NCBI GenBank assembly: GCA_964016885.1 | Contig: OZ024740.1 | Span: 333,870,001-333,934,000 of the forward strand | Origin: Eledone cirrhosa | Lineage: Eukaryota | Length of the DNA: 64,000 nucleotides | Direction: 5' to 3' | Shown here: positions 2,531 through 47,081 of the stretch, piece after piece | Numbering within the stretch: the first letter of the stretch is position 1 | Layout: each line of letters starts with the position of its first letter | The notes under the pieces: model-generated | What the model saw: only the letters and a program-made list of their open reading frames with translations | What the model was told of the DNA's origin: nothing | The model's database searches: none | Made by a program: the position numbers and the translations under genes

Positions 2531-3564
2531 TGAAAAAATGGGGAGAAGAATACTGCAGGTGGCACATGGATAACATGTAATAAAATGAGTCCCTCATCAG
2601 TGATTTGCCGACGATCATAGATATTTCATTGCATTAAAAATCATATACCTCACGTCGGTGCAATAATAACTAAATTAAGTTATTAGGACAATTAAACCGC
2701 GTAAAGCGAGTGAGACAAGATAACAACAAAGAGGAGAGCTAACCGTAGAGAGGAAAGGAACAAGCTAAATAGTTATTCGGTTAGCATAAGCTAGGTGAAT
2801 ATATAAGCGCTTAGAAAAAAGACCTTTCGGGATGAATCCAAATGTGAGAAAGAGAGAAAATGTTTTCGTCGCGAACGGGGTGAAGTGAGAAGGGGACAAA
2901 CAGTGAGTGAGTGGAAGTGTGAGGAAGAGTTAACTGACATGACAGAGGGGGCGAAAGAAAGTAGGAGAAACAGAGAGAACGAGGGAGCAGTAAGAGAGAG
3001 AGAGAGAAAAAAACAGAATCGCAGTGTAGGTAAATATATGTGAAAATATGGGGAGAAGAATACTGCAGGTGGCACATGGATAACATGTAATAAAATGAGT
3101 CCCTCATCAGTGATTTGCCGACGATCATAGATATTTCATTGCATTAAAAATCATATACCTCACGTCGGTGCAATAATAACTAAATTAAGTTATTAGGACA
3201 ATTATAACGCGTAAAGCGAGTGAGACAAGATAACAACAAAGAGGAGAGCTAACCGTAGAGAGGAAGGGAACAAGCTACATAGTTATTCTGTTAGCATAAG
3301 CTAGGTGAATATATGAGCGCTTAGAAAAAAGACCTTTCGGGATGAATCCAAATGTGAGAAAGAGAGAAAATGTTTTCGTCGCGAACGGGGTGAAGTGAGA
3401 AGGGGAGAAACAGTGAGTGAGAAAGTAGGAGAAAAAGAGAGAACGAGGGAGCAGTAAGAGAGAGAGAGAGAAAAAAAACAGAATCGCAGGTATATTAGGT
3501 ATATGATTTTTAATGCAATGAAATATCTATGATCGTCGGCAAATCACTGATGAGGGACTCATTT

Positions 3565-3569
<5 letters not shown>
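2531..3569 (-). mobile_element. Non-coding ~510-nt element: tandem dimer plus inverted short arm (retrozyme/non-autonomous PLE-like)
   Basis: Direct repeat with period 510 (2531-3039 and 3040-3489, second copy with an internal deletion); inverted copy 3497-3569; (TA)n on both sides; homologues at 19620-20130 and 28315-28718. Confidence 0.75.
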
Positions 3570-3604
<35 letters not shown>

Positions 3605-3964: not shown

Positions 3965-5550
<1,586 letters not shown>

Positions 5551-5742
5551 ACAGGGAGAAAGAGACGATTATTAGGAAGAACAATTTTTTTTTTCCTTTT
5601 TAGTTCCTCTCACTCTTTTTTTCTGGGTTAGAACATGATTAAAACGAAATGTTTTAATTTGTGTGAAGTGTTAAGGTATTAGTTGATTTATTTATTATTT
5701 AACAATGCCATTTATTTATCTATTTATATATTTAATTATTGT

Positions 5743-5784
5743 CTATTACCGGTTTCAGCATTTTTATGCATTATCATATGATAG
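5743..5784 (-). ncRNA. Degenerate type I hammerhead in 3' UTR of the Neptune-like PLE
   Basis: Minus strand ctat-(cata)TGATAA-t-gcat-aaaa-atgc-t-GAAA-ccgg-TA-atag; core damaged. Confidence 0.55.
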
Positions 5785-6086
5785 TGAAATGTATAAGGTG
5801 CAACAACTTTTATGAAGTGAAAAGAAAAAGATAAAGGAAAAAAAGAGTGCATAATGTGGAACGTAAAATTCAATGTGGAAGAAAAAATAATGTTATTTAC
5901 AAGCAAAGTCATTGAAATTAACAGATCAAAATGTGTTAATACAGCAAGAGTGCTTAGTTGATCCATAATTCGGTGATGGAGGCAAATGGTGGACTTAGGT
6001 TTGATATGATTTCCCTTTTTACAGAGTTAATATGCAGGGGGAAGCAATTCTTGCTGGGTGATATTTAATTTATTTCAGAAAAAGGA

Positions 6087-6578
6087 TTAGGTAGGGTGTG
6101 AGGGAGGTAACTCTTGTAAATGTTTGATTGTTTGTTGCAGTTTTAGATTGGTCCGATTTTTAAAGCATTTTAAAGCATTAAGTAGGAGTTGAAATTTATT
6201 AATGAGATGTGTTTCCGTATTGGTACGTTGGATGAAAGTAGCGTTGTCTATGAATTTGTAAATGGGGAAAATTTTAATATTTGGATGTTGGTTGAGAGCA
6301 CAATTGGCGATATGTTCACTAAATGCAATCTTTCTGTATTCCTGTATTTTAATTTGTGATTTATGGATGGTCATATGGAGGATGTTTTTTGTCTGTCCTA
6401 TGTAGTGCTCTTGACAACCTGAGCAGGTCAAAACATACATAAGGTTTTCAGATGCACATGTAAAGTTGTGTTTAATTGTGAAACGTTGTCCTTGTTTGAA
6501 ATGGAATGTTGAACCTTTTATTAGATTTATGCATATGCCACAGTTGGGCCTTCCGCATTTTGTTACTGTAGGGTTCAT
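6087..6578 (-). pseudogene. PLE Zn-linker + GIY-YIG endonuclease fragment
   Basis: KCGRPNCGIC...FTCASENLMYVLTCSGCQEHYIGQT...HKSQI...FSEHI...E.HLINKF..LN. Confidence 0.88.
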
Positions 6579-6812
6579 TGTGAGGGTTTGTTGGATTTTG
6601 ACTTGTGTGAGGATGTTTTTATGGATTTGGGTTCTCTTTTGCTCTTTATGAGGTTGTTTGTTTGGACGATATTGTTCATTCTTGGGTCTCTTATTAGTAA
6701 AGGAATGTTCTGGAGGATGGTGTCGTTGAGGGGGTTGTGTGTGGAGATGTATGGTAGAGTTTTGTTGCGGTTCATTCCTGTGTTTGAGGAGTCTGATTTC
6801 CTGGATGTATAG

Positions 6813-7740
6813 TTATAGGGCACGATGGAATCCATTGGTGATTAGTGTGTTTTTTAATTCTTCTAGTCGTGTGTAGCATGTGTATTTATCTGAAACTATT
6901 GTGCAGATCCTTCTGGCTAGGTTATAAGAAATTGCCATTTTGGTGTGTCTAGGGTGGCACGAGTTGAATGGAAGGTATTGTTTGGGGTCTGTGGGTTTGT
7001 AGTATATGTCTGTTTTTATTTTGTTGCTTGTTTTCTTGATGAGGATGTCGTCGAAGAAAGGGAGTTGTTCATGGCTGTAATCCATTGTGAATTGTAAGTT
7101 AATGTTGATTCCATTCAGAAGGGTTTTGAACTCAAACAGTCTATCTATACTGTCATGCCAGACGATGAAGCAGTCGTCCAGATATCTCTTCCAGTTCTTT
7201 CCTATGTGTTGGTAGAAGTGGTTGCCGTATTTGTCTAGAACTTTGCGGTAGAGAATGGTTTCCAAATATCCCATAACAAGGTTGGCGTATGAGGGTGCCA
7301 CTTTCGTGCCCATGGCAGTCCCAGATTTATGTCTGCAGTATTTGGCATTTGAATTCAAAGAAATTGTTTTCCAAGATGAATTTTAGTCCCTCCAACACAA
7401 TTCCTTTAGGAATGCGCTGTGGAAGTTCATTAGGGAAATTTTCCATCCAGTATTGTATTGCCTCTATACCTAGGTTGTGTGGTATATTGGAATATAAATT
7501 GATGACATCAAAGTTTACTAGTAGGGTATGTTCGTTATTGAGTGTTGTTGGGAAGTGGTTGAGCATGTCAAGGTCGTCCCTTATGAAGCTTTTTATATGT
7601 TTTAGGAAAGGTTTAAGCAGAATATCTAGGAAGTTGCTTAGGCGGTGGGTTTCACATGTGGTATCTGCTATTATGGGTCTTAATTTAAGGTCATCAGGAG
7701 GGGCTATATTGATGTAAACGTCTGTGGCTTGCTTGCAGGT
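6813..7740 (-). pseudogene. PLE reverse transcriptase core, frameshifted
   Basis: ORFs 7327-7566 and 6813-7358 carry RT motifs including YLDD and the thumb region. Confidence 0.9.
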
Positions 7741-10075
7741 CCTGTCTATTACTTCACTTTTGTGTGTCTTGGGGATACCGTAGAAGAGGCTGGTTCTGCT
7801 TTTGAAATTGGTGTTGTAGTTGTATTCCTTGTCTGTAAGGCTTTGTAAAGGGCTGTTAGGGATTTTAGGTTTCTCATTATTTTCCCTTGTATGTAGTGTT
7901 GGGCCTTTTCATAATATGTTTGGTTTTCTAGAGTTGAGAGTACTAGAGTTGTGTAATATTCTGTCTCCATAAGGACTACTGCACTCCCTATATCTGACTC
8001 TTGATTGTTAGGGTTTTGTCGTTTTTTAGACTGTTAGGACCATTCCATTCTTTTTTGCTTAGGTTTGCTTTTTGTTTATGTCTGTGTAGGTGGTGGTATG
8101 GGTAATTAGTAATGTGTTCGCAGAATTGATCGAGGAATTTATTCTTGCATTTTGGTGGGGTGTAGTTGCTTCTATTTCTGGCTATTGAGTCATCCTCATT
8201 GTATTTGTCATATTGTTGTTCGCTGAGTCTAAGCTTTCTACATAATTCTGCAATATCTTCCTTCATTTCGGGGTAGTTTGGTTGTTGGGGAGTTGGTGTA
8301 AATGTTAGACCTTTGGAGAGTATGTTGATTTGGTCTGTTGTTAATTCTTTAGAGGTTAAATTGACAATTTTTATTGCATTTGGTGTCCCCTGTGTGTTTT
8401 GTGTTATCTTGTAATCCTGTGTCTGTGTGCTGTGTCTAAAAAATGATTATGGAAGTTGTGATGGCTGTTGAAGTTTGGATGTGTCTTATAGTTGTATTGG
8501 CTCCTGCTGTTGTAAGATGGTGTGTAGCTGTGGTGGTTGTTGAGTTTAGGTTGTATCATGTGGTTGTATTGAGTCCTGCTGATGTTGTTGTAGGGTGTGT
8601 AGATTTGATGGACGTGTTTATAGGGTGTGAATTTGTGGTGGTTGTTGAAGTTGGGTTGTATCGTGTGGTTGTGTTGAGCACTGCTGTTGTGTAGGGTGTG
8701 TAGACTTGGTGGTAGTTGTAGTAGGGTTGTCTTGTGTGTTCATATTGTGTCCTGTTGTTGCTGTTATATGGTGTGTAGCTATGGTGGTTGTAGAGGTTAG
8801 TGTGTCTCGTGTGGTTTTATTGTCCCCTGCTGGTGTTATTGTAGTAGGGTGTGGTTAGTGGGGGAGGGTAGATTAGGATTTCCTTATAGCTGGTGTGTGG
8901 CTGTGAGGCCCTGTGTGACATGTGTGGTAGTTGTGTATTTGGGGTTCTATGTTGGAAGTAATGATGGTTGTAGATTTGTTGTGTGGGGATGTTAGGGGGC
9001 TGTAAGTGTGTGTGTGTATGGGGGGGGGGGGGGTTTCTCCTGGTAGGAGAGAAGTTGTGGTGTCTATCTTGTAGCTGATGTTTCTCTATTACTATATTTG
9101 TTGCTTGGGAATCCGTGTGGTAGTTGTGTGGAGGATGTAGGAGGTAGGGGCGAGGTGATACCTTCTTATGTTGGTATGTGGGGAGGTATTGTTTTTGTTG
9201 TTGTTGTTGGTTGTTGTGTGTTGTTTGGGTGTTGATTGAATTTTCATGTTATTATGGTTCTTGGATGAGTGTTCTTTTTGGAAAAGTGTTTCATAGTTAG
9301 AGAACCAGGTTTCGTTTATTTCCCAGCGTTGAAGGAATTTTAATTCTTCCTTATTACAGTCCTCTAACCATAATTTTGAAATATTTTCTAGGGTGGTGTC
9401 TTTGGTTATATTGATAATTGCTAGATTAATCTCATCTTCGATTGATTTCATCCTATTTCCATTTGCTTGGGCTCTCAATTTAAGGAGTTCAATTTCGGTT
9501 TTTATGTTATCAAGTGCTATTCACCCCCTGTGGTGTCTTTGTGTCTCTGGTTCGTTTGGGATGGATTTAATTTGTAATTAGCGGGGGTTGATTATTGGGG
9601 ATGAGTTAATCCATTTTTCATAGATCTCCGCTTTGTTATTGTTTTGTAACATCTTCCAAAAAGAGAATTTCCTGTTTTTAAGAAATGTGTACCTTTGTGG
9701 CATTAATTTGTTTTTATTTGGTAAGTATTAGTGTCATGTGTATTTTCATTCGTTTGAATAGAGTTTGTGTTGTTATTGTTTCACATAAGTTATTGATATT
9801 GTCGTTGATTTCATAGGATGTGTATTTGGGGATTATTTCTTCACTTGTAGAGTTTAGTTTGTTGTTGAGTATTGACAAATTAGAGTTAATTTTTTGTAGT
9901 TATATATATATATATATATATATATTGTTATACTTTGGGAGGGTCATGTTGCCAATAAGAAATACACGCACCAGTTGCTTTCACTTCAATTTATTATAAT
10001 AAATTTATAAATTTAGGAATTTATAAATTTTAGGTTCGCTGGTTGGTTCCACAACCAGATAATTGTTTATATATT

Positions 10076-10118
10076 GTCAAAGTTCTTTCGTCACACATTA
10101 TGTGACCACTTCAGTGAC
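10076..10118 (-). ncRNA. Minimal type I hammerhead (A9 mutated)
   Basis: gtca-CTGAAGT-ggtcacataatgtgtgac-GAAA-gaac-TT-tgac. Confidence 0.7.
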
Positions 10119-10728
10119 TGGGGATTCTTTTCTTTGTTTTTGAGCCTCTCCTTTGTTCTGTCCTACGCCATCTTGTTTTTGTGTGTGTGTTGTGTGCTTA
10201 GTTTGCGCATGTGTTACATCCGGGTGTCTGTGTGTGTTTATATTCGTTTATTTATTTGTTATTTACATGTTACTGGTTGGTTGTTTGTTCTATGTGCGTG
10301 TGTGTTTTCATTTTGTCCTTAATTGTAAGTTGTGATGTTGCTGTTAAACTCATGTTTTCTATTTAATTTTGGTTGGAGTTCATTTATGTTTATTGCCTCT
10401 GTGATTTGTCTAAACATGTAAAGACGCAATGTTTAGACAAATCACAGAGGCAATAAACATAAATGAACTCCAACCAAAATTAAATAGAAAACATGAGTGG
10501 AACAGCAACATCACAACTTACAATTAAGGACAAAATGAAAACACACGCGCACATAGAACAAACAACCAACCAGTAACATGTAAATAAACAAATAAATAAA
10601 CGAATATAAACACACACAGACACCCAGATGTAACACATGCGCAAAATAAGCACACAACACACACACAAAAACAAGATGGCGTAGGACAGAACAAAGGAGA
10701 GGCAAAAAACCAAAGGAAAGAATCCCCA

Positions 10729-10771
10729 GTCACTGAAGAGGTCACATAATGTGTGACGAAAGAACATTGAC
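10729..10771 (+). ncRNA. Minimal type I hammerhead (U16.1 mutated)
   Basis: gtca-CTGAAGA-ggtcacataatgtgtgac-GAAA-gaac-AT-tgac. Confidence 0.7.
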
Positions 10772-11010
10772 AATATATAAACAATCATCTGGTTGTGGAA
10801 CCAACCAACCAACCAACCGGAAATTTATAAATTCCTAAATTTATGAATTTATTATAATAAATTGAAGTGAAAGCTACTGTTGCGTGTGTTTCTTATTGGC
10901 AATATGACCCTCCCAAAGTATAACAATATCGGTTTCAACACACGTTTTCAGATAAAGAATCTTGCTAAACAAATTCAGAAACGATATATATATATATATA
11001 TATATATATA

Positions 11011-12008
11011 ACTCTTTCGTTGGTTTTTGCTTCTGTATCTTTTTTATCTCCATAGTTAATTCATTAGTCAATCAACGTTTATCATTGTTTCACCAACGGT
11101 TAAAAATATAGATATAAATATATATATATCAAATTTCTTTCGTTGCACATCTGCAACATCATCAGTGGTACTCTTTTTTATGTTCCCTCCTAGTGTATTA
11201 TAATGCCTACGCCAATTTTATATTATTTATTTATTTATTCTTGTCTCCGTCTCTGCGCGTGCGTTTGTGTTTGTGTGTGTTCGCGTTTGAGTGTATGTGT
11301 TTTGGTTTTTGTATTCTATCTTTGTGTACTATCTGTGCTTGTTGTTATTGTACTCGTGGATATATTTATATATTTATTTAGTTATTTATATTTCCTTAAG
11401 TCTGTATTATTTGATTGGGTATGGTTGTTGTTGTTATCCCATTCATTTTTTCTGTTTAACTTTGGTCTTCTAAGCACTATCTCAGTAGCTTCTCTGACTT
11501 GCCTACCTGTTGAGTCATATCTATATTTAGATATTATTTTAATTTTTATGTTGTCTCTATTACCGTCATGTCTTTGCCTGTCATGTTCGTATAGTATTAA
11601 ACCGTTTTATTTGTTTGTCCTCTTAGTTCACCGCAGTGTTGGTCTATTCTTTCTTCTATGCTTCGCGCCGTCTCACCTATGTATGTCGTTGTCATGTTTC
11701 TGTACATCCTACATACTACATTTCTAGTTTTAAAGTTTATCTGGGGGTTAATTTTACAAATAACACATTTCTTATTATTGTAGTGGGTTTTCTGTTTTGC
11801 TGATCGGGGATTTTATGGTAGTTCTTGGCTTTTCTACCACTTTAATATTTAAGTGGGTCTTTCTCAGGGCCTACACTGGTTAACTAATTTCCCCCCAGGG
11901 GTAGCATACACGAACATAATATTATTACAACAATATGACCCTCATCAAGTATAATAATATTTGTTTCGACACACGATTTCACATCAAAAAACTTGCAAGA
12001 CAAATTCA
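11011..12008 (-). mobile_element. 5'-truncated Naiad-like PLE (subfamily B) with short inverted tail
   Basis: 11011-11917 minus is a decayed homologue of ~59360-60353 (GIY-YIG, 3' UTR, HHR); 11918-12008 plus encodes MTLIKYNNICFDTRFHIKKLARQI. Confidence 0.85.
11128..11169 (-). ncRNA. Minimal type I hammerhead
   Basis: acca-CTGATGA-tgttgcagatgtgcaac-GAAA-gaaa-TT-tgat. Confidence 0.75.
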
Positions 12009-13301: not shown

Positions 13302-13714
13302 CATAAATATACATATAGAATGAGGAAATACAAAGTTCATATATGCATGCATCGATGTATAAGTTTCTGCGTATATGTGTATCTAAGTGTGTAGTATATA
13401 ATATACACATTTTACTAAAAGTCCCTCTTCCATATTATTCACTTAATAATCTATTTCTAATTACCTTAAATTTCGTTATATTTTATCCTATTCATTCTCT
13501 TACTCACTAATTGCATTAGCTATTTATTGTTTTAGTTTTATATAACTGATTTTAATATTTCGTTAAAATGACACTTTATCTTCTAAGATATGTGTTTGCG
13601 TCTGTGTCTACCCCTCGCCTGCTCCGCCTTTTATACCTTCTGAACATTATATTAGTTCTTCTGTTAAACCACTCCAAACAATAACCCACTCCTACCGCAG
13701 GCACATTATTTCCT

Positions 13715-13900
13715 GGATTGGCAGTATCGGGAGAGGGTCGGACACCATGCTTTGATGAATAGAGTTACGGCCCTTGTCATTCTGTGTTCAAATCTCGCCG
13801 AGGTTAACTTTGCCTTTCATCCTTACGGGGTCGATAAAATAAAGTACCAGTAATGTACTGGGTAATTGCTGGCCTTGTGCCAATAGTAGAAAGAATTATT
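13715..13900 (+). mobile_element. tRNA-derived SINE (MESC/Meta-like central domain)
   Basis: A-box-like TGGCAGTATCGG, B-box GTTCAAATC, core gccgaggttaactttgcctttcatccttacggggtcgataaaataaagtaccag; TSD attatttcct. Confidence 0.85.
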
Positions 13901-15546: not shown

Positions 15547-15882
15547 CTTTATGATCTGAGTTTAAATCCCGCCGAGGTTAGCTTTACCTTTCATCCTTAC
15601 GGGATCGATAAAATAATTGTTTCTACTTTTGGCACAAGGCCAGCAATAACCCTGTACATTACTGGTACTTTATTTTATCGACCCCGTAAGGATGAAAGGC
15701 AAAGTTAACCTCGGCGGGATTTGAACTCAGATAGTAAAGGGACGGAACTCTTTGCATCAAAGCATGGCGTCCGATCCTCTACTGATACCATAAAATAATG
15801 TACCAGTCACGCACTGGTTCGATTTAATCGACTTTCCCCTCCCCCCAAATTGCTTGCTTTGTGCCTATATAAGAAATCATTA
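15547..15882 (+). mobile_element. SINE split by a nested antisense SINE
   Basis: 5' part 15547-15617 continues at 15790-15882 across duplicated ataaaataat. Confidence 0.75.
15618..15789 (-). mobile_element. tRNA-derived SINE (nested)
   Basis: Reverse complement of the 13715 family; TSD ataaaataat at 15608 and 15790. Confidence 0.85.
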
Positions 15883-19619: not shown

Positions 19620-20241
<622 letters not shown>

Positions 20242-20872
20242 GTGTGTGTGTATGTATGTATGTATGTATGTATGTGTGTGTGTATGGGCGTGTGTATGTA
20301 TGTGTATATACATGGTGCTTCTTATTATTTGTGTCACTTCCATATTTCATTGTGTATACTAATCCCAGCTACAACTTCTCTTTATCTGATGATGACTATT
20401 TTGTTCATGTTGAATACTTATATAATCATATTTAGATAAGAGCATGCGGAATATTAAGGATAAAATCTACTCGTATCGTTTCGTTTATTTAATTCCACTC
20501 AAGTTTCTTTTTCTTTTCATTTTGCATTCATTTATTGATATATGTAGGTAAGTGCTGATTTTAGAAATGGAGAATCTGAAAAGAAATGCCGTAGGAAAAT
20601 TCAAAGTAATACAACGGTTAATGCAATCCCAATTCAAAACGTTAACGTTACAATAAAGTAGAAGCAAGAAATTATCACCAATGATATGACATAAAATATA
20701 TCAAAATTCGTGTATATGTTACGCAGAAACAAGACCGATTATATAAGAAACATCATGTAAGTACAATCAGCAGAATAGCTAAGTGTTAAAAAATCTGATT
20801 TGTAGAACAAGAAATCTATCCAAAATAACACATATTTTAGTAGTCAATGCATAATTTAGTTATTGTAATAGT

Positions 20873-21063
20873 TGTTTCTACGTTAGGCACAATGCCAGCA
20901 ATTACCCAGTGCATCACTGGTACTTTATTTTATCTACCCCGTAAGGATGAAAATCAAAGTTAACCTTGCTTGGATTTGAACTCAGAAACGCAACGGCTGT
21001 AACTCTATACGTCAAAGCATGGCGTCCTACCCTCTACCAATACTGCGAATCCACCGCCCTAAA
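20873..21063 (-). mobile_element. tRNA-derived SINE
   Basis: Same family as 13715; TSD ttattgtaatagt. Confidence 0.85.
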
Positions 21064-21375
21064 TTATTGTAATAGTGTTCAAAGTTCATTGCTGGGTTGT
21101 GTTATTTTGGATAAATTTCCTGTTCAACAAATCAGATGTTTTAATACTTAGCTATTCTGCTCATTGTACTGACACGATTTCCCTTATATATTCGGTCTTC
21201 TTACTGTGTAACATATTCGCGAAGATTCCTATATTTCATTTCATATCATTGGTGATAAATTCTTGCTTCTACTTTATATTAACGTTAATGTTTATTGCTG
21301 GAATTGACATCAGTAAAATGTTACGATCAACTTATGCACAATTCTGGACGCATCATAGATGAACGTAATTATAAT

Positions 21376-21562
21376 TGTTTCTACTTTAGGCACAAGGCCA
21401 GCAATTACCCAGTGCATTACTGGTACTTTATTTTATCGACCCCGTAAGGATGAAAGGCAAAGTCAACCTCGGCGGGATTGAACTCAGATCGTAAAGGGAC
21501 GTAACTATGCTGGAAAGCATGGCGTCCGACTCCCTACTGATACTGCCAATCCACCACCCTAA
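21376..21562 (-). mobile_element. tRNA-derived SINE
   Basis: Same family; 17-bp TSD atgaacgtaattataat. Confidence 0.88.
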
Positions 21563-28314: not shown

Positions 28315-28319
<5 letters not shown>

Positions 28320-28718
28320 AAAAACATGGAGAGAAGAATACTGCATGGTTGCACATGGATTACATATTATAAAATGAGTCCCTCATCAGTGATTTGCCAA
28401 CGATCATTGGTATTTCATCGCATTAAAAATCATATACCTCAGGTTGATGCGAGCAATAACTAAAATAAGCTATTGGGACAAGTGAAACGCGTAAAGCGAG
28501 TGAGACAAGTAAACAACAAAGAAGGAAAAGCTAACCGAAGATGGGAAGAAAAACAAGCAACATGGTTATCCGATCAGTATAATCTGGGTGAATTTCATGA
28601 GCGCTCAGCAAACAGACCTTTCGCTGTGAATGGGATGTGAGAAAGAAGGAATCCCACTCCTAGCGAACGGGAGGAAGTGAGAAGGGGAGAAACAGAGAGT
28701 GAGTGAGTGGAAGTGCGA
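28315..28718 (-). mobile_element. Partial copy of the ~510-nt non-coding family
   Basis: Clearly alignable to 2531-2920. Confidence 0.85.
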
Positions 28719-30951: not shown

Positions 30952-31073
30952 GTACACACACACACACGCACATATATATATATATATATACGTTACTCCG
31001 GGTTGAATCGGAGGTAACCACAGTAAGTAAGGTACTCAATACATAGCAGAGTATAAAAGTTTTAATATAGATG

Positions 31074-31124
31074 AGATTCTACATGACTAGAACTGTTTCT
31101 TTCTTTAGAAATCATCAGTAATCT
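31074..31124 (-). ncRNA. Type I hammerhead
   Basis: agatta-CTGATGA-tttctaaagaaa-GAAA-cagttctagtcatg-TA-gaatct. Confidence 0.8.
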
Positions 31125-32095
31125 GGGTATGAAAGAATAAATATGGTATTTATAGGTCTCTGCGGGTGGTAGGAGAGGGTAAGGAGTGGGATGGGTAGCG
31201 GTCATTCGTTGATAGAAAAGGGAATTCATTAAAAGCTAATTCTTTAAAGTTATAATTTATATTTAGAGTAACGAAGGCAGAAATAATTCTATAAACAAGT
31301 TCAGAATGGGGTGCCACTCGTCATTTTTAAGTTTCTCTTAAGCTAACAATGTCTATATTTCAGGTGTCTATAAGATCGTTGGGGGTCAGTCATCGTTGAT
31401 GTATTTAAAGAAAAGGGAAATTTGTTAAAAGCTAATTCTGTAAGGTTCTACTTAGTGACAAAGGCCTAGAGAATTCTATAGACCAGTTCAAAATATTGAG
31501 TCCATATCATACCATTATCTTCAAATTTCTCTTAAACTATGTTCCAAAAGTCAACAGACACATTCACAAACACACACACACTCGCGCGCACCCACACAAA
31601 CATATATATATATACACATAGACATACATATACACACATATACACACACATACAAACACACACAAATCGAGTTTTGGAATATAGTTTAAGAGAAATTTGA
31701 AGATAATGGTATGATATGCACTCAATATTTTGAACTGGTCTATAGAATTCTCTAGGCCTTTGTCACTAAGTAGAACCTTACAGAATTAGCTTTTAAAGAA
31801 TTTCCCTTTTCCTTAAATCCATCAACGATGACTGACCTCCAACGATCTTATAGACACCTGAAATATAGGCATTGTTAGCTTAGAGAAACTTAAAAATAAG
31901 GAGTGGCACCCCATTCTTAACTTGTTTATAGTATTATTTCTGCCTTTGTTACTCTAAATATAAATTATAGCTTTAAAGAATTAACTTTTAATGAATTCCT
32001 TTTTCTATCAACCAATGACCTCTACCCATCCCACTCCCTACCCTCTCCTACCACCTGAAGAGACCTATAAATACCATATTTATTTTTTGATACCC

Positions 32096-32146
32096 AGATT
32101 ACTGATGATTTCAAAAGAATGAAACAGTTCTAGTCCTGTAGAATCT
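32096..32146 (+). ncRNA. Type I hammerhead
   Basis: agatta-CTGATGA-tttcaaaagaat-GAAA-cag-ttctagtc-ctg-TA-gaatct. Confidence 0.8.
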
Positions 32147-32182
32147 CACCTATATTAAAACTATATATATATATATATATAC

Positions 32183-32226
<44 letters not shown>

Positions 32227-32450
32227 CGTTTCTGAATTTGTTTAGCAAGATTCTTTATCTGAAATCGTGTGTTGAAACCGATATTGTTATACTTTGGGAG
32301 GGTCATGTTGCCAATAAGAAACACACGCACCGGTTGCTTTCACTTCAATTTATTATATATTTATAAATTTATAAATTTACAAATTTACAAACTTATAAAT
32401 TTCTGGTTGGTTGGTTGGTTGGTTCCACAACCAGATAGTTGTTTATATAT

Positions 32451-32495
32451 AGTCATAGTCCTTTCGTCACACACTCTGTGACCTCTTCAGTGACT
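32451..32495 (-). ncRNA. Minimal type I hammerhead
   Basis: agtca-CTGAAGA-ggtcacagagtgtgtgac-GAAA-ggac-TA-tgact. Confidence 0.82.
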
Positions 32496-32774
32496 GGGGA
32501 TTCCTTTCTTTGTTTCTGTGCCTTTCCTTTCTTCTATCCTACGCCATTTTGTTTCTGTGTGTGTGTTGTGTGCTCAGTTTGCGCATGCGCCACATCCGGG
32601 TGTCTGTGTGTGTTTGTGTTCATTTATCTATTTGTTTATTTATTTATTTATTTATTGTTGGTTGGTTGTTTGTTCTATGTGTGTGTGTGTTTTCATTTTG
32701 TCCTGTGTGTGTTTTCATTTTGTCCTTAATTGTAAGTTGTTTGTTCTATGTGTGTGTGTGTTTTCATTTTGTCC

Positions 32775-34363
32775 TTAATTGTAAGTTGTGATGTTGCTGT
32801 TCCACTCATATTTTCTATTAAATTTTGGTTTTAATTCTTTTATGCTTACTGCCTCTGTAATTTGCCTAAACATTGAGTCTTTTCTGTGTGTGGATTCTAT
32901 TTTTATTTCTATGTTCTCTAATCTACCCCTGTGTTCTATCTTAGCATGTTGGTAGAGCACAGATGATTCTTTATTATCTTGGAGGTCTCGCCAGTGTTCA
33001 TTTATTCGTTCCTCTATACTACGAGCTGTCTCACCTATGTACACTATATTTTTGTTTCTACATTGTCCTTCAGTACATTTTATGCTATACACTACATTTC
33101 TAGTTTTACAGTTAATATGGGGGCTTATTTTACAGGTTATACATTTCTTATCTATACATGAGGGTCTTTGGAACGGGTATGTCTTGCTAATAAGTGTTTT
33201 TACGGAGGTACCTGGTCTTTCTACTATCTTAATATTGAGATTATGTTTATTTAGGGCCCTTCTAAATTTGTAGGCTAGTTCGCCTCTAGGGGTTGTATTG
33301 ATGAACATTACACTCTGGTATTTATTGCTATCATACCATAAGTTTATTTTATTGGCCTTGTTCCTAGTTCTTTCTATTCTATTCCAAAATTTGCTCCTAT
33401 ACAAGGGGCAGGTCCCATTTATGTCATTATTTACCATTTTTTCCCATTTAGTTCTGGCTCCTTTATACACTCTGATTCTATCTCTCTGATTGTAGCCAGA
33501 GAACTGCATACGGTGGATGCAGTGTTGTATGTGTCTCTCTAGTTCTTCGGGGTTGCACATGCGGGACACATTTCTCATCACCCGTACCAAATCCGCAATC
33601 AGTATGTTGATTTTGGTATGGTCCGAAATGGCCGAGTTTCGGTGGATCAGATGTTTGGAAGTCATGGGTTTGGCATAATGGGAATGGAGGATTTGTTTTT
33701 GGTTGTTAATGGTATCTAACCAGAGCTCTGTGTCTAGTACAGGTAATCGATGGTTGGGGTGTCTACTTGGGTAGTCTATAGTAACTCTAATGCTCTGGTG
33801 GATGGAGTTTGCTATTTGCTGGATGCTTTCCATTGTGTTTTTCTCTAGTTCCTGACTGTTCTTTAGTGGGGGTGTCTTAACTACGATGTTTATATCATCT
33901 ACGTAGCGGGAGTACATTATCAGGGTTAAGCTGTCTTCTAATTGTTCTTTAAGTTTTTGTTTAAGTCTACTGTCCCACCATACCATGAATAAGTTAGCTA
34001 TGTCGCCTGCAATGCTAACACCAATGGCTGCTCCTTCCTCTTGGGCATATGTTTTACCATTAAATTTGAACATATGTTCCTTAAGGGTTAATTTTATGCT
34101 GGCCCCTACCGCATGTGCAATCATTTTCTTCAGTTCATCGTGGTTTTCGGGTGTCCGTATGGCTCTGGTCCACCCGTTCCATCTATCTGTGTGGGTTTTC
34201 TTGGCCATTGAGGTAATGGTAGGTGGTCTGCCTCTTGCTGGTCTTGTAGGGCACAGGTTGCTAAGGTCATAAGTGTCTAGGTAATTATTACTATGGGCAA
34301 GCTTAAGTAGAAGTCCCAGCTCACTGGTATCAATCCCACGGAACTCAACCTTGCTCTCGCTGA
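32775..34363 (-). CDS. 5'-truncated inverted copy of PLE RT + GIY-YIG (the ORF-track N-terminus beyond 34363 is chimeric)
   Basis: Uninterrupted; differs from 35177-36832 at only a few residues. Confidence 0.85.
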
Positions 34364-35156
34364 GAGACATAGAAACAATCATGAGGCTGTTGGTGGAAAT
34401 AGAACAACTAACAATAATAATAGCACTAGTACACATAAAGCAGCAGCCTGGAACTCTCCGTTGTATAACCCCTCCGATAAATCATTCGACCTACGACGAG
34501 TCCACGCCACGACTTTGCCATTTAACAAACGCACGCAGTTGCCGTCGCAGGTCGATGAACAAACAGAAGCACAATTTAGTATAGCTAAATCCGAACTTAG
34601 AAATATTATAGAACAGTATAGCAAGAAGCATAATAGAATAGAGGCCCAGCAACTGGGAGAAAAATCTGCAAATGGCTTGCGTAAGCTCATGCAGCGCTCG
34701 CGTAATGGAGAGATAGCATGTTTTCCAACAGACAAGTCTGGCAGAATGTCGGTTGACAGCCTGCCAAACTACATCCAGGCAATGCAAATCCACATCACTA
34801 ACACAAGAGAGGTAACACCACAGGAGCATGAGGATAGAGAAAAAGCCCTCAATGCCCATATGGTGATGTGGACGAATATAATGCAGCCCAACAAAAGGAC
34901 TGCCAACAACTTCCAGGCCTGGAACAATGACGTGCCGGCGTTGTATGGGCTTCGAAAAGACCATAAAACGGGCTGGGACCCTGTCGCGGGACAACCAACA
35001 CGGCCAGTCTGTGGCGCTAACATTGCTAGTAACTACAGATTGTCCTACTTCCTGTCCCTGATCATACGCCCCATCATTGAGATGTCCCCAGATGTGTGTG
35101 ACAGCACGGAGGACCTCCTCAGCAAAATAGGCGCGGGTAACCGATCTGGGAACTAA
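34364..35156 (+). CDS. PLE polyprotein N-terminal and RT finger region (5'-truncated; frameshift at ~35150)
   Basis: ATTLPFNKR..LP, PTDKSGRMSV, VPALYGLRKDHK, PTRPVCGA, CDSTEDLL; continues as ELTNCIIGSMDV in the neighbouring frame. Confidence 0.88.
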
Positions 35157-35176
35157 CAAACTGCATAATAGGCAGT

Positions 35177-36832
35177 ATGGATGTTGTGTTCCTGTATCCC
35201 TCTATTGACGTGGATTTTGCTGTGGAGAAATGCGTAGAAATGATCAGCAAGAGCAAGGTTGAGTTCCGTGGGATTGATACCAGTGAGCTGGGACTTCTAC
35301 TTAAGCTTGCCCATAGTAATAATTACCTAGACACTTATGACCTTAGCAACCTGTGCCCTACAAGACCAGCAAGAGGCAGACCACCTACCATTACCTCAAT
35401 GGCCAAGAAAACCCACACAGATAGATGGAACGGGTGGACCAGAGCCATACGGACACCCGAAAACCACGATGAACTGAAGAAAATGATTGCACATGCGGTA
35501 GGGGCCAGCATAAAATTAACCCTTATGGAACATATGTTCAAATTTAATGGTAAAACATATGCCCAAGAGGAAGGAGCAGCCATTGGTGTTAGCATTGCAG
35601 GCGACATAGCTAACTTATTCATGGTATGGTGGGACAGTAGACTTAAACAAAAACTTAAAGAACAATTAGAAGACAGCTTAACCCTGATAATGTACTCCCG
35701 CTACGTAGATGATATAAACATCGTAGTTAAGACACCCCCACTAAAGAACAGTCAGGAACTAGAGAAAAACACAATGGAAAGCATCCAGCAAATAGCAAAC
35801 TCCATCCACCAGAGCATTAGAGTTACTATAGACTACCCAAGTAGACACCCCAGCCATCGATTACCTGTACTAGACACAGAGCTCTGGTTAGATACCATTA
35901 ACAACCAAAAACAAATCCTCCATTCCCATTATGCCAAACCCATGACTTCCAAACATCTGATCCACCGAAACTCGGCCATTCCGGACCATACCAAAATCAA
36001 CATACTGATTGCGGATTTGGTACGGGTGATGAGAAATGTGTCCCGCATGTGCAACCCCGAAGAACTAGAGAGACACATACAACACTGCATCCACCGTATG
36101 CAGTTCTCTGGCTACAATCAGAGAGATAGAATCAGAGTGTATAAAGGAGCCAGAACTAAATGGGAAAAAATGGTAAATAATGACATAAATGGGACCTGCC
36201 CCTTGTATAGGAGCAAATTTTGGAATAGAATAGAAAGAACTAGGAACAAGGCCAATGAAATAAACTCATGGTATGATAGCAATAAATACCAGAGTGTAAT
36301 GTTCATCAATACAACCCCTAGAGGCGAACTAGCCTACAAATTTAGAAGGGCCCTAAATAAACATAATCTCAATATTAAGATAGTAGAAAGACCAGGTACC
36401 TCCGTAAAAACACTTATTAGCAAGACATACCCGTTCCAAAGACCCTCATGTATAGATAAGAAATGTATAACCTGTAAAATAAGCCCCCATATTAACTGTA
36501 AAACTAGAAATGTAGTGTATAGCATAAAATGTACTGAAGGACAATGTAGAAACAAAAATATAGTGTACATAGGTGAGACAGCTCGTAGTATAGGGGAACG
36601 AATAAATGAACACTGGCGAGACCTCCAAGATAATAAAGAATCATCTGTGCTCTACCAACATGCTAAGATAGAACACAGGGGTAGATTAGAGAACATAGAA
36701 ATAAAAATAGAATCTACACACAGAAAAGACCCAATGTTTAGGCAAATTACAGAGGCAGTAAGCATAAAAGAATTAAAACCAAAATTAAATAGAAAATATG
36801 AGTGGAACAGCAACATCACAACTTACAATTAA
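35177..36832 (+). CDS. PLE reverse transcriptase + GIY-YIG endonuclease (Naiad-like)
   Basis: MDVVFLYPSI, QEEGAAIGVSIAGDIANLFMVWWD, YSRYVDD, DYPSRHP..RLPVLD, HYAKPM, CxxxxCxxC, VVYSIKC...YIGETARS..ER..EH, RQITEA, LNRKYEW. Confidence 0.95.
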   Translation: MDVVFLYPSIDVDFAVEKCVEMISKSKVEFRGIDTSELGLLLKLAHSNNYLDTYDLSNLCPTRPARGRPPTITSMAKKTHTDRWNGWTRAIRTPENHDELKKMIAHAVGASIKLTLMEHMFKFNGKTYAQEEGAAIGVSIAGDIANLFMVWWDSRLKQKLKEQLEDSLTLIMYSRYVDDINIVVKTPPLKNSQELEKNTMESIQQIANSIHQSIRVTIDYPSRHPSHRLPVLDTELWLDTINNQKQILHSHYAKPMTSKHLIHRNSAIPDHTKINILIADLVRVMRNVSRMCNPEELERHIQHCIHRMQFSGYNQRDRIRVYKGARTKWEKMVNNDINGTCPLYRSKFWNRIERTRNKANEINSWYDSNKYQSVMFINTTPRGELAYKFRRALNKHNLNIKIVERPGTSVKTLISKTYPFQRPSCIDKKCITCKISPHINCKTRNVVYSIKCTEGQCRNKNIVYIGETARSIGERINEHWRDLQDNKESSVLYQHAKIEHRGRLENIEIKIESTHRKDPMFRQITEAVSIKELKPKLNRKYEWNSNITTYN

Positions 36833-37133
36833 GGACAAAATGAAAACACACACAGGACAAAATGAAAACACACACACACATAGAACAAACAACTTACAAT
36901 TAAGGACAAAATGAAAACACACGCAGGACAAAATGAAAACACACACACACATAGAACAAACAACCAACCAACAATAAATAAATAAATAAATAAACAAATA
37001 GATAAATGAACACAAACACACACAGACACCCGGATGTGGCGCATGCGCAAACTGAGCACACAACACACACACAGAAATAAAATGGCGTAGGATAGAAGAA
37101 AGGAAAGGCACAGAAACAAAGAAAGGAATCCCC

Positions 37134-37178
37134 AGTCACTGAAGAGGTCACAGAGTGTGTGACGAAAGGACTATGACT
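37134..37178 (+). ncRNA. Minimal type I hammerhead
   Basis: agtca-CTGAAGA-ggtcacagagtgtgtgac-GAAA-ggac-TA-tgact. Confidence 0.82.
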
Positions 37179-37360
37179 ATATATAAACAACTATCTGGTT
37201 GTGGAACAAACCTACCAACCAGAAATTTATAAGTTTGTAAATTTGTAAATTTATAAATATATAATAAATTGAAGTGAAAGCAACTGGTGTGTGTGTTTCT
37301 TATTGGCAACATGACCCTCCCAAAGTATAACAATATATAAATATATATATATATATATAT

Positions 37361-38096: not shown

Positions 38097-39924
38097 CTCC
38101 ATATCGTTTTTCATTAATTTTCTGTATCTATTGTTGTGATCCTGTCTCTATGTTTGTACTCCTGAAAATGGGTCCGACACGTCGACCTTTCTTACCCTTT
38201 TTATATATAAAGCGTAAAACTAATAAGACTGGTTGTAATTACATTGTGAGGTTCAAACGAAAAGTAGATTTAAAAATCACAAAACAATTGGCCCTCCATT
38301 CATATTCACCTAGTACTGTTGAACGGAATTCATTAAATACGCAATAGTATGTAATCCTTTACTGTATATGAACACGGTGATTTTTTGACATCTCTTTTAA
38401 ACATATTAGATCAGTCTATCCTTGGATTAGTTCATACTGACAGTGAATAATATAATTTATTTTCTGTAGAAATAGTGCATTTCCGGATTATGCCAACCTT
38501 AGTATAAATAGTTCAACGATAAATATTTCAGCGATTTATATTAAAATTAGCATGTAGGAAGATGACAGTTTTTATCGGAAGTGTTTGCTAACGCAGTGAT
38601 ATTACTCGTGTATGCTGGAACAAACACGGCCTGGAGTACAACGTATTACTTCATTATGTCGTGAAGAGGTTGCTGTTCTTTGCCAAACTAATGAACCGAA
38701 ATTGAATTAAAAGATTGCTCGCATTTATGACATAATACAAAATGATGGAGAGTTACGCTTTCAACAAAATTAGTTAGGGAGCAAAATACAAAAAAAAATC
38801 AAAGCTTTAACAGAATAAAATTCCTTATAGTGTTAGCATTTAATATTGGAATGGAAAAAAGACAAAATTAAAATCGTAAAATGATGAAATCCTGTCAAGG
38901 TAATGGGTTGGGCGGATCATATAGAAAGAACATTTATGAAACATGTAATTTCAACTAGTCTCTCGTTATTTATGCGTATGTAAAGTTTTGGAGAATGTGA
39001 ATCTATTATTTGAAAATAGTTTGAAAACTTGTTGATAGAAAAAATTATAACGCCTTAAATGCTAGACAGAAAATGAATTGAAATATATTTATCAAAGGAA
39101 AGAGCATAAAAGATTATTTTCAAGCCATTGAAAAGTATAGATGAAAATAAATTTAAAACTTTTAATCAGTGAAAAATGTTTATTTGGGGTTTTATATAAA
39201 ATTGGTTGATACTTTTTGCAATATTTTAGGTTAAACGAGAAAGATCGTGGCTGACCCTTTGCATTAATATAATAGCTTTCGTCTAGTAATAATTTACCAT
39301 CTAAATTGAATCTAAAAAAACATAAATAAAAATATAGCATTTCCTGTAAATAGGAGCACAGATTTAAGGTGAGATATATGAATTAAATCATAAAATGCTG
39401 AAAACAATTAACGTCAAAAATTAAAAATATACTTAAATTCTTAACAAAATGAGGTAACGTGCCAATATTTTGTATTTAGACAAATAACCTAGCCAAATAT
39501 TGTAGGCCATGTTTTCTTGATTTCGTTTGCTTAAAATGAAGATGTATCGAACATTTGGCCTTCCTCCCAGAATTATTAACAACTGTTTTCTTCGCCTTCT
39601 CTTCTTGTATTGACTCACCATTAAACATCGTCGGAAGGAAATCTCAAAGAAAGCCAAAATAAAATTATTCTTTCATTAAAAATCGGAGATTATTTATGTA
39701 GAGATATTGAATAACTGTTTGTTATTTATAACTACGAGAATCACCTGAAAAACGTGCATTACAAACTATTTTGATTTTAATTTCACAACTGATGCTTTTG
39801 AAAGATTCACATACAAATCTTTCCGAACAATCACATAGACATACTCCGACACACTCACACACATTACAAATACATCAAACTCATTCATACTTTACATGCA
39901 TTTATATATATATATATATATATA

Positions 39925-40525
39925 CAGTATTTTCCGTTGTGTTGTAATATAAATATTACACACAGTAGATTATCAGCTCACGTAGAGTTTGCTCGACGGT
40001 TCCAGTTGTAGTTCCAAAAGTAATCCGGAGAAAAATAGAAAGATTTGAATGGATACAGTTTAGTTGAAAGGAATTTATTGACACGTGTTTCTATAACAGT
40101 TACATAACCTAAAACAGCTGCTATGTTAATTAAGTGCAAACACAAAACCAACCACGCATATCTTTACTATCTCTAATCCTTCTATAGATTTAGAAAAATA
40201 ACCAATAATATATTCTATAAAAATGTCAAAACAACAGATGGGAATCTAATTACTCACTGCCACCAAGAATTCTCACTGCTATCGAAAAAACACTCCTTCA
40301 AATATTCTTCTAACAACTTCACCCCTCCCTCCTAATATTCTCTATAAAAACTAAATAGGTCCTCAGTAATATTATTCTGATGAAATGACAGTAAATAATA
40401 ACATTGAAATATTGAATGTCTGCATAACTAAAAGTTTGTAGATAGCAGCTGTTTTAGGTTATGTAACTGTTATAGAAACACGTGTCAATAAATTCCTTTC
40501 AACTAAACTGTATTCATTCAAATCT

Positions 40526-41791: not shown

Positions 41792-41858
<67 letters not shown>

Positions 41859-41941
41859 GTTATTCCGGGTTGAATGGGAGGTAACCACAGTAAGTAATGT
41901 ACTCAATACATTGCAGAGTATAAAAGTTTTAATATAGATGA

Positions 41942-41990
41942 GATTCTACAGGACTAGAACTGTTTCATTCTTTAGAAATCATCAGGAATC
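41942..41990 (-). ncRNA. Type I hammerhead
   Basis: gattc-CTGATGA-tttctaaagaat-GAAA-cag-ttctagtc-ctg-TA-gaatc. Confidence 0.85.
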
Positions 41991-41993
41991 ACA

Positions 41994-42042
41994 GATTCCT
42001 GATGATTTCTAAGTAATGAAACAGTTCTAGTCATGTAGAATC
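41994..42042 (+). ncRNA. Type I hammerhead
   Basis: gattc-CTGATGA-tttctaagtaat-GAAA-cagttctagtcatg-TA-gaatc. Confidence 0.75.
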
Positions 42043-42129
42043 TCATCTACATTAAAACTATATATATATTTGATATATATTTATCCTTATCGAGCCCTCT
42101 TTGGATTTTAGTCTTGAAATTTATTATTA

Positions 42130-42160
<31 letters not shown>

Positions 42161-42164
<4 letters not shown>

Positions 42165-42775
42165 TGGCTGCCAACTCGTTTTCGAGTACGGCCACTACTT
42201 TACATCCATGTAGGAAAACCTCTACCGATGGGCTGAACGAGTGTGACTTTTTAGTCCAGCCAACGACTTGAAGACTCTGGTACAAACACTACACTTGTGA
42301 CAATTATTGACACATAGTGCTGGGCCCATGGTACCGTGTGGTGACAAGTGCAGAGAGATCTCCAGATGTAAAGCAATGCCTGTGCCGTGAAGCTTTTATA
42401 GTGAGCAAAGGCACTGCACAGAGCCAGTCACACTCTCTTAACCAAGATGATATTTACCAAAAAGAAGAACAACTCAACATCATTGGATACCATCCGGGTT
42501 TCAGGTGTTATATCAGAGTTTTCCTTCTCCTAGAATTCTGCCTTGACAAAGGCTAAGGGGTCATCTCTCCCGGTGAATTTGGATGGACATTGACTCTTAA
42601 GAGATCCTTTGCCCTTTAACAGGTTTTGTTTTTAGTCCCGCAGGATGTCCAAAGTCACCCTCCTAACCAAGAAACCTTGGTGGGGTTGCCAGTTTAGTCG
42701 CCAACGACTCGACCATGACACCGGTTGTACTGGGATACATGTTACCAGAAGCACCAACTGGTGACCTGACATATA
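42161..42775 (-). mobile_element. RTE-LINE-related fragment
   Basis: Homologous to 37361-37705; ttccttctcctag...tgccttgacaaaggct motif. Confidence 0.45.
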
Positions 42776-42784
42776 TTCATATAT

Positions 42785-45305
<2,521 letters not shown>

Positions 45306-45351
45306 TATATATATACATAAATATATATGAATATATGTCAGGTCACCAGTT

Positions 45352-46338
45352 GGTATTATATCGGATCTACCACCACATCGTTTAAATCTCGCTGGTACCG
45401 TCATCGATTCTCAATCAAACATCCGAATCACCGTTTTGTGACCACGCTCGCCAACAAGACCTGGCAACTCCGTGAACACAACCAACAGTTCACCTTAAAA
45501 TGGAATATACTTTCCAGCGCAAGTGCATATCGGAGTGGATGGAAGTACCGCAGGTTATGTAACCTTGAGCTATTTTACATATTAAAATCCAAAAACAAAC
45601 TACTTAACGATAGAATTGAACGATCATTATACTGCAACCACAAACTAAAAGCTAAATTCTCTCACTATAAAATAACTTAACATTCGAACCCGTAACTATA
45701 ACACCACTTTCTAGCTAACAACCTTCTCTTCCCCCCACACTACAAGACAATACACTGCTTATCACTATACATGGTAACTCAGTACAATTCCTAGATTACT
45801 ACTACAAATACAAAAGTTCACTCACCACACATACTTTATCTGTCCCCTCTCTACCTATCTCTCTCTCTACATCCATTACACTCTCTCTCTCTCACCTTTG
45901 ACCTACCTCCCTCTCAACATCTATGAACCTGCCCTCTGGGGCAATAAATAATTCCGACCTTAACTATCAACGCATCTCTCCAATAGTAACCTGTATAATA
46001 AAACCCCTACCATAACATTTTGATTAAGATATCTAGAAACCACTCTCTCCTACTTCTCCAACCCCTGCGTATCTTTCCTTCTCTCTCCCTCTTCCCTACT
46101 TTTCTCTCTTCCTGTTCCACTCTATCTTCCCCAATAACCCCACTTAAGGGTTTTTACATTGTACATTTACCATTCTGCTCTGAGGAAACAGTGGTCACAG
46201 CATTGGATATTCGAGTTCTGCAAGTACTTGTGAATTTGCACATAGCGGAACTAGGCTGCAGTACCACCGTGGAAACACTTGTAAGCACACAGAATAAATT
46301 ACCTTTTTATGATGTCTACCTGTTATTATTCATTCTTT
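45352..46338 (+). mobile_element. 5'-truncated Nematis-like PLE (GIY-YIG C-half, 3' UTR, HHR)
   Basis: YIGSTTTSFKSRWYRHRFS...TTLANKTWQLR...LKWNIL...LCNLELFYI...LLNDRIE...CNHK, stop at 45680. Confidence 0.85.
46176..46287 (+). ncRNA. Type I hammerhead with ~85-nt stem II domain
   Basis: tgct-CTGAGGA-aacagtggt...accaccgtg-GAAA-cacttg-TA-agca. Confidence 0.8.
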
Positions 46339-46528
<190 letters not shown>

Positions 46529-46544
46529 ATATATATATATACAC

Positions 46545-46716
<172 letters not shown>

Positions 46717-46729
46717 TATATATATATAT

Positions 46730-46764
<35 letters not shown>

Positions 46765-46844
46765 GACATATATATATATATATATATATATAGATATATA
46801 TATATATATATATAGATATATATATATAGATATATATATATAGA

Positions 46845-46878
<34 letters not shown>

Positions 46879-46949
46879 GATATAGATAATTTAATTTTTA
46901 TATGAGCCGCCAGTGTCCGCGCATTGCCTGGAGACTTAACTGAGAATAG

Positions 46950-47031: not shown

Positions 47032-47081
47032 GAAATTTAAGTAAGAAAAAAATTTTAAAAAATATTTTCTTATTTTACGTC

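Follow-up and report, generated by a model that had tools for sequence, protein, structure and literature searches.

A predicted hammerhead ribozyme in non-circularly permuted order near the 3′ end of a 510-nt Penelope-type element of Eledone cirrhosa

We analyzed a 64,000-nt stretch of Eledone cirrhosa contig OZ024740.1 (positions 333,870,001–333,934,000; hereafter the window) and consider the following joint reading of one of its repeats probable: a non-coding Penelope-type insertion carries near its 3′ end all parts of a hammerhead core, arranged as cleavage Site, then GAAA, then CUGAUGA (S-G-C), this region folds into a predicted pseudoknotted self-cleaving ribozyme, and the element is likely copied into (TA)n by a reverse transcriptase (RT) of the Naiad clade of Penelope-like elements (PLEs) acting in trans. 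On its sequence, the element is thus best read as a non-autonomous, Naiad-mobilised retrozyme whose putative hammerhead has a novel architecture. The preliminary description of the locus had proposed a retrozyme-like unit whose insertions have a Penelope-like anatomy and whose 3′ region contains a conserved structured RNA, and our analysis supports this. Its proposal of a candidate new ribozyme class or a mere RT-recognition RNA is replaced here, as the core is that of a hammerhead in non-circularly permuted order.

We read all units on the pyrimidine-rich strand (64–71% pyrimidine), which is the minus strand for units A and C and the plus strand for unit B (Table 1). That the 3 loci represent one element with a pyrimidine-rich body and a common core, as first described, was borne out by the core pattern, which occurs without mismatch at 5 sites in the 64,000-nt window (2614–2637(−), 3124–3147(−), 3510–3533(+), 20016–20039(+), and 28403–28426(−)); 100 shuffles gave zero matches even with up to 3 mismatches allowed. 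Unit A1 is identical to A2 at 439/448 positions (98%), to C at 328/390 (84%), and to B at 337/467 (72%). The anatomy agrees with the preliminary description and is as follows: (i) locus A is a head-to-tail dimer with a period of 510 nt, flanked by a short inverted arm that has neither the upstream strand of the motif nor the last 47 nt of the unit; (ii) unit B starts with the unit's final bases and a short AT run, as seen at the A1/A2 junction; (iii) (TA)n borders every outer end of the copies; and (iv) the units are non-coding, the longest ATG open reading frame (ORF) of any of them being 49 aa. No Pfam match to an RT or an endonuclease/GIY-YIG domain was found in the 69 frames scanned of the 102 listed outside known PLE ORFs, and a search of unit A1 against plasmids and phages gave no match. 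Between A1 and B, 71/103 columns are identical in the motif region vs 64/140 in the preceding body.

Table 1. Positions of the units of the 510-nt element and of the parts of the predicted ribozyme in the window.
Feature	Position	Strand	Remarks
Unit A1	2531–3040	−	Full-length monomer, 510 nt, non-coding; 3′ end adjoins (TA)n
Unit A2	3041–3489	−	Upstream tandem copy, 449 nt; slight 5′ truncation; 46-nt internal deletion
Inverted arm of locus A	3497–3572	+	76 nt, 99% complementary, 5′-truncated; blocks S, G, and C present
47-nt 3′ tail	2531–2577	−	In tandem units; missing from inverted arm
Unit B	19620–20134	+	Diverged monomer, 515 nt; starts with last bases of unit
Unit C	28315–28718	−	404 nt, 5′-truncated, sits in (TA)n
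Predicted permuted hammerhead, A1	2589–2689	−	~101 nt
Block S, A1	2643–2645	−	U16.1 = 2645, H17 (A) = 2644
Block G, A1	2624–2627	−	G12-A13-A14-A15.1
Block C, A1	2594–2600	−	CUGAUGA (C3–A9)
Stem III, A1	2649–2645/2624–2620	−	Helix
Stem I, A1	2643–2638/2606–2601	−	Helix
P1 (stem II substitute), A1	2663–2659/2633–2629	−	Helix
P2, A1	2658–2653/2613–2608	−	Helix
P5, A1	2689–2685/2593–2589	−	Helix
Hairpin Pa, A1	2684–2678/2671–2665	−	Helix between P5 and P1
Kink-turn-like internal loop, A1, between stem III and P2	2652–2650 opposite 2619–2614	−	3-nt bulge, tandem G.A, U.U
Motif in A2	3099–3199	−	H17 = 3154, 510 nt from A1 H17
Motif in B	19963–20064	+	H17 = C at 20009; 8 compensated pairs vs A1
Motif in C	28378–28479	−	H17 (A) = 28433; 33/34 pairs intact

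The copies might instead be 5′-truncated 3′ UTR or pseudo-LTR pieces of an autonomous Naiad, with no separate element involved; the ribozyme reading would be unaffected. Naiad insertions are mostly 5′-truncated (PMC8557442), unit C is 5′-truncated as well, and the motif is common to Naiad 3′ ends (described below). We nevertheless regard such an origin as rather unlikely: at the junction in locus A, one unit's 3′ end passes directly into the start of the next 510-nt unit, and therefore the whole element is 510 nt; unit B, although 28% diverged, has an equal start, end, and length; and no ORF adjoins any copy.

Every part of the hammerhead core is present in the aligned copies. CUGAUGA (C3–A9), GAAA (G12–A14 and A15.1), and U16.1 are invariant in A1, A2, B, and C, and H17 is present throughout, being an A in units A1 and C and a C in unit B. 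The cut is predicted to fall between 2644 and 2643 in A1. Stem III is paired at 5/5, 4/5, and 5/5 positions and stem I at 6/6, 5/6, and 6/6 in A1, B, and C, respectively, and the linker from the 3′ strand of stem I to block G is an invariant 4 nt. The ordinary stem II is absent: positions 10.1/11.1 are G/U, C/A, and G/U in the 3 copies, with no helix beyond them. Each stem II flank instead pairs with the upstream strand, forming P1 before GAAA and P5 after CUGAUGA. The statement in the preliminary description that the element does not fold as a hammerhead holds for types I–III and fails overall, the permuted core having stems I and III in place. In unit B, 5/34 pairs of the motif are broken and one kink-turn base is changed; this motif is likely an older, decayed copy.

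In the fold that we propose, the strand before GAAA would join the upstream strand as P1 and so replace stem II, and the strand after CUGAUGA would pair further upstream as P5; P5, hairpin Pa, P1, and the core would meet in a four-way junction. On the upstream strand, P1 directly adjoins P2, and together they would link stem I with the substitute for stem II. The internal loop between stem III and P2, which we take to fit the kink-turn consensus, would bend P2, the extension of stem III, back toward stem I.

Across the 3 independent copies, 93/99 cells of the six-helix model are paired and 9/33 pairs are changed on both sides (4 in P2, 2 each in Pa and stem I, 1 in P1, and 0 in stem III and P5); slid-partner controls were 27–52% paired. 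Because the model was drawn from these same 3 independent copies, the shuffle and null figures overstate its significance: 0/500 shuffles were as high, and among 200,000 random-substitution trials, the 8 compensated pairs of A1/B were reached in 4, the 7 of B/C in 34, and the 2 of A1/C in 4,173. The helices named in the preliminary description fared unevenly. Its hairpin (alignment columns 94–99 with 107–112), which we reject as the conserved fold and regard as a rival of similar stacking energy that would bury CUGAU, has 0 pairs changed on both sides because the CUGAU side never varies, and its 2 helices taken jointly showed no excess over shuffles (80/500 for percentage paired and 426/500 for double changes); the upstream pairing that it noted is real and is helix P1 of the six-helix model.

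A descriptor composed only of the core words and stems I and III found, in SGC order, exactly the 5 window copies; in the other 5 block orders, it gave 9 loose matches elsewhere in the window and none at the element loci, and 30 shuffles of 47.6 kb gave a mean of 0.17 loose SGC matches and 0 tight ones. In a genome contig search, a longer core pattern gave 0 matches and a shorter one gave 3 chance matches, all in bacterial contigs that do not have the helices (stem III, 0–2/5; stem I, 2–3/6; P1, 0–2/5) and that scored at most 13 bits with a covariance model of the 3 copies, vs 117–123 bits for its own training copies. The same model detected no additional copy in the whole window, the next best score being 16.9 bits. 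Minimum-energy folding, a method without pseudoknots, did not recover the six-helix model and was no better than for shuffles (z −1.06, −1.49, and −0.11), and circular folding of whole units against 40 shuffles gave z −2.1 (A1) and −1.4 (B). The wobble evidence for the strand is thin (4 G-U vs 1 A-C).

The Naiads described by Craig et al. in 2021 insert into (TA)n targets and show partial tandems, inverted 5′ copies, 30–40 bp tails, and no canonical hammerhead, and some of them were flagged “HHR_core” or “HHR_half_core” in that study (PMC8557442). The (TA)n target, the partial tandem, the inverted 5′-truncated copy, the tail, and the absence of a canonical hammerhead are common to Naiads and the present element. 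The two differ in size and coding content (3.4–4.4 kb with an EN-CxC-RT ORF in Naiads, 510 nt without an ORF here) and in tail length (30–40 nt as described for Naiads, 47 nt here) (PMC8557442). We read by eye the last 330–600 nt of 53 of the 54 Naiad consensus sequences, together with passages around the core words (PMC8557442, File S5). In this reading, 9 of the 53 3′ ends (Bfor, 3_Chem, Amil, Aacu, Anas, 2_Movir, Plae, Obim, and Ovul) have the SGC order and a matching P5/Pa/P1 junction, with unrelated helix sequences; approximately 6 of the 9 are independent because the 3 Acropora and the 2 Octopus entries form near-identical sets. By eye, Naiad Amil is paired at 8/8 positions in P5, 6/6 in Pa, 6/6 in P1, 8/8 in stem III, and 6/6 in stem I, and Naiad Plae at 5/5, 8/8, 6/6, 6/6, and 6/6, respectively; stem I of Bfor appears to have only 2 bp, and P5 looks weak in Obim and Ovul. 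A G from the upstream strand seems to lie opposite C11.1 in Amil, Plae, Bfor, 3_Chem, 2_Movir, and Obim/Ovul, and this G-C pair favours P1 as the replacement for stem II. The kink-turn-like loop, as well as a Pa loop like that of copy C, also appears to be present in Obim and Ovul; the helix sequences of the element differ from those of Naiad_Obim/Ovul by eye, and these Naiads are not put forward as its partners.

Inspected in the same way, 3 more Naiads (Esco, Ptep, and Smim) have the SGC order with a stem II that is different or unclear, and 6 nematode Naiads (1–3_Nbra, Hcon, Hpol, and Asuum) have the CSG order with ordinary stems I–III; in Asuum, A9 and stem II are separated by one additional base. 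The 3′ end of Naiad-1_Movir has what we take to be a twister-like motif at the place where other Naiads have the permuted hammerhead. The other 35 consensus 3′ ends contained no hammerhead that could be parsed by eye in the part of the sequence inspected, and of the 17 families that Craig et al. had flagged, 8 were left unparsed in this inspection. The bivalve and hemichordate Naiads CGi, Sglo, Olur, Tgra, Pmar, Skow, and Pfla were seen by eye to have a different conserved, pseudoknot-looking 3′ motif directly after the stop codon, which is without hammerhead words and is a candidate for another ribozyme. The link to Naiads rests on by-eye reading: an autonomous Naiad ORF (N-terminal GIY-YIG, CxC linker, and RT) was not found in the window among the 69 of 102 listed frames scanned, a protein search with the window's Neptune-type endonuclease gave 1 match and no Naiad protein, and none of the best 150 matches to this endonuclease combined similarity at the N-terminus with a long stretch C-terminal to it.

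The permuted order likely accounts for the description of Naiads as lacking a canonical hammerhead. Going further, we think there is a good chance that Naiads and their non-autonomous retrozymes are not ribozyme-less and carry active non-circularly permuted hammerheads in 2 forms, namely a four-block form whose stem II is divided over a four-way junction (in a ctenophore, cnidarians, an acanthocephalan, and octopuses, and here with a kink-turn) and a CSG form in nematodes. No such ribozymes would have been seen in cellular genomes before, although they would exist there in very high copy number, because the descriptors now in use miss them. From the missing canonical hammerheads of Naiads, Craig et al. 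concluded that ribozymes may be mere parasites of PLEs (PMC8557442). If ribozymes persist in Naiads under other topologies, PLE biology seems to have a conserved requirement for self-cleavage.

The fold could be real and no longer catalytic, that is to say, a hammerhead-derived binding or priming signal for a Penelope-type RT. Such a signal would fit the weak or missing 11.1 pair (this position is U, U, and A in the window copies, against a G-C pair in the Naiad consensus sequences as read by eye), the A17 in 2 of the 3 copies, the location of the motif approximately 60 nt from the 3′ end, and the in vitro insertion of the PLE Poseidon without hammerhead cleavage (PMC11167929). It would also fit a competing hairpin over CUGAU, whose stacking energies are −8.7, −8.3, and −5.9 kcal/mol vs −12.7, −8.6, and −6.2 kcal/mol for P2. 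We consider a loss of catalysis unlikely, as all catalytic core nucleotides are invariant although the copies differ at 24/68 helix positions, and other Naiads, read by eye, seem to have a CSG hammerhead or a twister-like motif at the equivalent place instead, a substitution that points to cleavage, and not any one shape, as what is selected. In all 3 copies, the 3′ strand of P2 (A1 2608–2613) can alternatively pair with the CUGAU of the core (2595–2600, −); in our model, this pairing could be an off-switch or else a by-product.

Comparison with known RNA families revealed no Rfam match at the gathering score in the window, no hammerhead match in 2535–3566 at E-values up to 10, and no ribozyme among the 150 listed of 164 matches in an E-value scan of 1–42700, these being mostly microsatellite-driven miRNA models. 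A canonical type II hammerhead, in which GAAA precedes CUGAUGA and the two enclose a hairpin stem I, was rejected because the intervening stretch forms neither stem III nor stem I. A SECIS element was rejected on its helix, which is too short, and for want of an ORF. A new ribozyme class or an unrelated RNA of box C/D snoRNA-like or SECIS-like type, with the hammerhead words coincidental, is highly improbable: the absence of an Rfam family at gathering score and a kink-turn-like loop that recalls box C/D speak for it, but the snR66 model, the only Rfam match on 2535–3566, reached 18.8 bits vs a cut-off of 65 (E = 7.6), and the placement of stems I and III around the core words is just what a hammerhead requires, a placement that by eye recurs in unrelated Naiad sequences.

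In the life cycle that we propose for the retrozyme, read-through RNA of tandem copies would be cut once per unit (after 2644 and 3154) to yield 510-nt monomers, which a host ligase may circularise by analogy with retrozymes (PMC7229834). A Naiad protein would then nick (TA)n and begin reverse transcription internally, at one of 2 start sites 47 nt apart that lie 66 and 113 nt downstream of the cut; these 2 starts would give insertions of 0.8, 1.0, and 1.9 units with the tail present or absent. A circular or a tandem template would equally explain such insertions with a common 3′ end, and the window fits either. In the Poseidon element of Anolis, the tail is defined by 2 internal start sites, which the 2 element 3′ ends 47 nt apart match (PMC11167929). 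In the same work, Poseidon hammerhead cleavage required protein, insertion in vitro did not depend on this cleavage, and the cleavage site was not the end point of any RNA-seq read (PMC11167929). The 3′ ends of the insertions lie 113–123 nt from the predicted cut and not at it, which counts against the proposed cycle. The inverted arm begins at most 7 nt upstream of the predicted cut; we do not count this start as evidence of cleavage because junction microhomology blurs its position.

The window is microsatellite-rich animal DNA with several PLEs. An ORF at 35141–36832 joins an RT to a GIY-YIG domain at the C-terminus, with weak Pfam matches below the cut-off, and the best of its 146 relatives is an Octopus vulgaris protein (66%), from a lineage that has Naiads. 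This PLE is arranged as a 2.1-kb inverted repeat (97.6%) at 32200–37340, where type I hammerhead words lie at 32490 and 37139, and related fragments occur at 9900–11010, 11024–11921, and 59275–60430. At approximately 5550–9520 (−), a decayed PLE remains in ORF pieces with a Zn-finger/Cys-rich linker before a C-terminal GIY-YIG, resembling Neptune/Nematis; it has a very strong strand skew and adjoins a 1.6-kb (TA)n tract. A short TA-flanked family in inverted arrangement (30990–32165 and 41820–42165) contains a compact type I hammerhead with a GUA site, has no ORF of at least 100 aa at 30990–32165, and is likely a conventional retrozyme. Other features of the window are a dispersed SINE- or MITE-like repeat of approximately 180 nt in 5 copies that are 82–90% identical (13714–13900, 15611–15788, 20867–21053, 21371–21553, and 61396–61562) and a 16-kb AT-dinucleotide tract (42771–58973) with an assembly gap of 200 N at 51638–51837. 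A Pfam V1R match at 39732–39944 falls on low-complexity sequence and was dismissed.

Eckert et al. (2023) defined the hammerhead by blocks C, G, and S, with types I–III being CGS, GSC, and SCG, and identified and validated 2 orders that are non-circular, SGC (583 sequences) and CSG (2 sequences) (PMC10085705). This was the first demonstration of non-circular permutations of natural RNAs, and genomes of known organisms yielded none there, barring one doubtful GCS case (PMC10085705); in its supplement, Penelope occurs in the references only, and Octopus, Acropora, Metazoa, and Eukaryota are not mentioned. The literature searched, outside which subscription journals largely lay, contained no report of a non-circularly permuted hammerhead from Naiads, from PLEs, or from the genome of any animal. 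The section covered of a 2026 paper in NAR cites other hammerhead variants only in general, and that of PMC10162972, a paper it cites, shows nothing similar to the permuted motif. If our reading is true, it places a non-circularly permuted hammerhead, in an order previously known from environmental RNA only, in an animal chromosome. The 6 nematode Naiads, as read by eye, would likewise add to the CSG permutation, published from just 2 metagenomic sequences.

The closest known relative in design is the type-SGC hammerhead (HRIMA-1 and its variants), which self-cleaves in vitro (PMC10085705). The element shares with it the S-G-C order, the full core, stems I and III, and a short S-to-G linker (4 nt here, typically 3 in type SGC), and a scan of all 6 block orders placed the copies in SGC only, the orders of types I, II, and III not being found in them. 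The type-SGC hammerhead, known from metatranscriptomes, has an ordinary stem II plus a helix for stem I–II interaction (PMC10085705). By contrast, in the element (i) stem II is split over P5, Pa, and P1 with a fourth, upstream block; (ii) stem III is lengthened through the kink-turn-like loop; and (iii) the connectivity of P1 and P2 differs from the published description, in which the extra helix binds the other sides of stems I and II. The motif would work like type SGC but is not classed as a member, its block C and stem II being interrupted; this architecture breaks the published assumption that block C is uninterruptible. An unpaired base between A9 and stem II is already known in PLE hammerheads (PMC4209133), and a whole junction at this place was not found in the literature searched.

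Ordinary type I hammerhead words occur in the other PLE families of the window (for example, at 10733, 32490, 37139, and 60173), which share the genome, the (TA)n flanks, and the inverted arms with the 510-nt unit but have the canonical C-G-S order, a hairpin stem II, and no DNA similarity to it. The metazoan non-LTR retrozymes (Cervera and de la Peña 2020, PMC7229834; Li et al. 2026, 10.64898/2026.07.22.740005) are, as here, non-coding tandem units with one hammerhead per unit and a proposed mobilisation by PLEs. They are defined by a type I hammerhead and are mostly 170–400 nt long, in contrast to the 510-nt unit with its permuted core, and the consulted text of the 2026 preprint uses type I models only (10.64898/2026.07.22.740005). 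The non-circularly permuted core of the 510-nt unit escapes such type I descriptors, and a new descriptor would uncover a class of animal retrozymes that type I searches miss.
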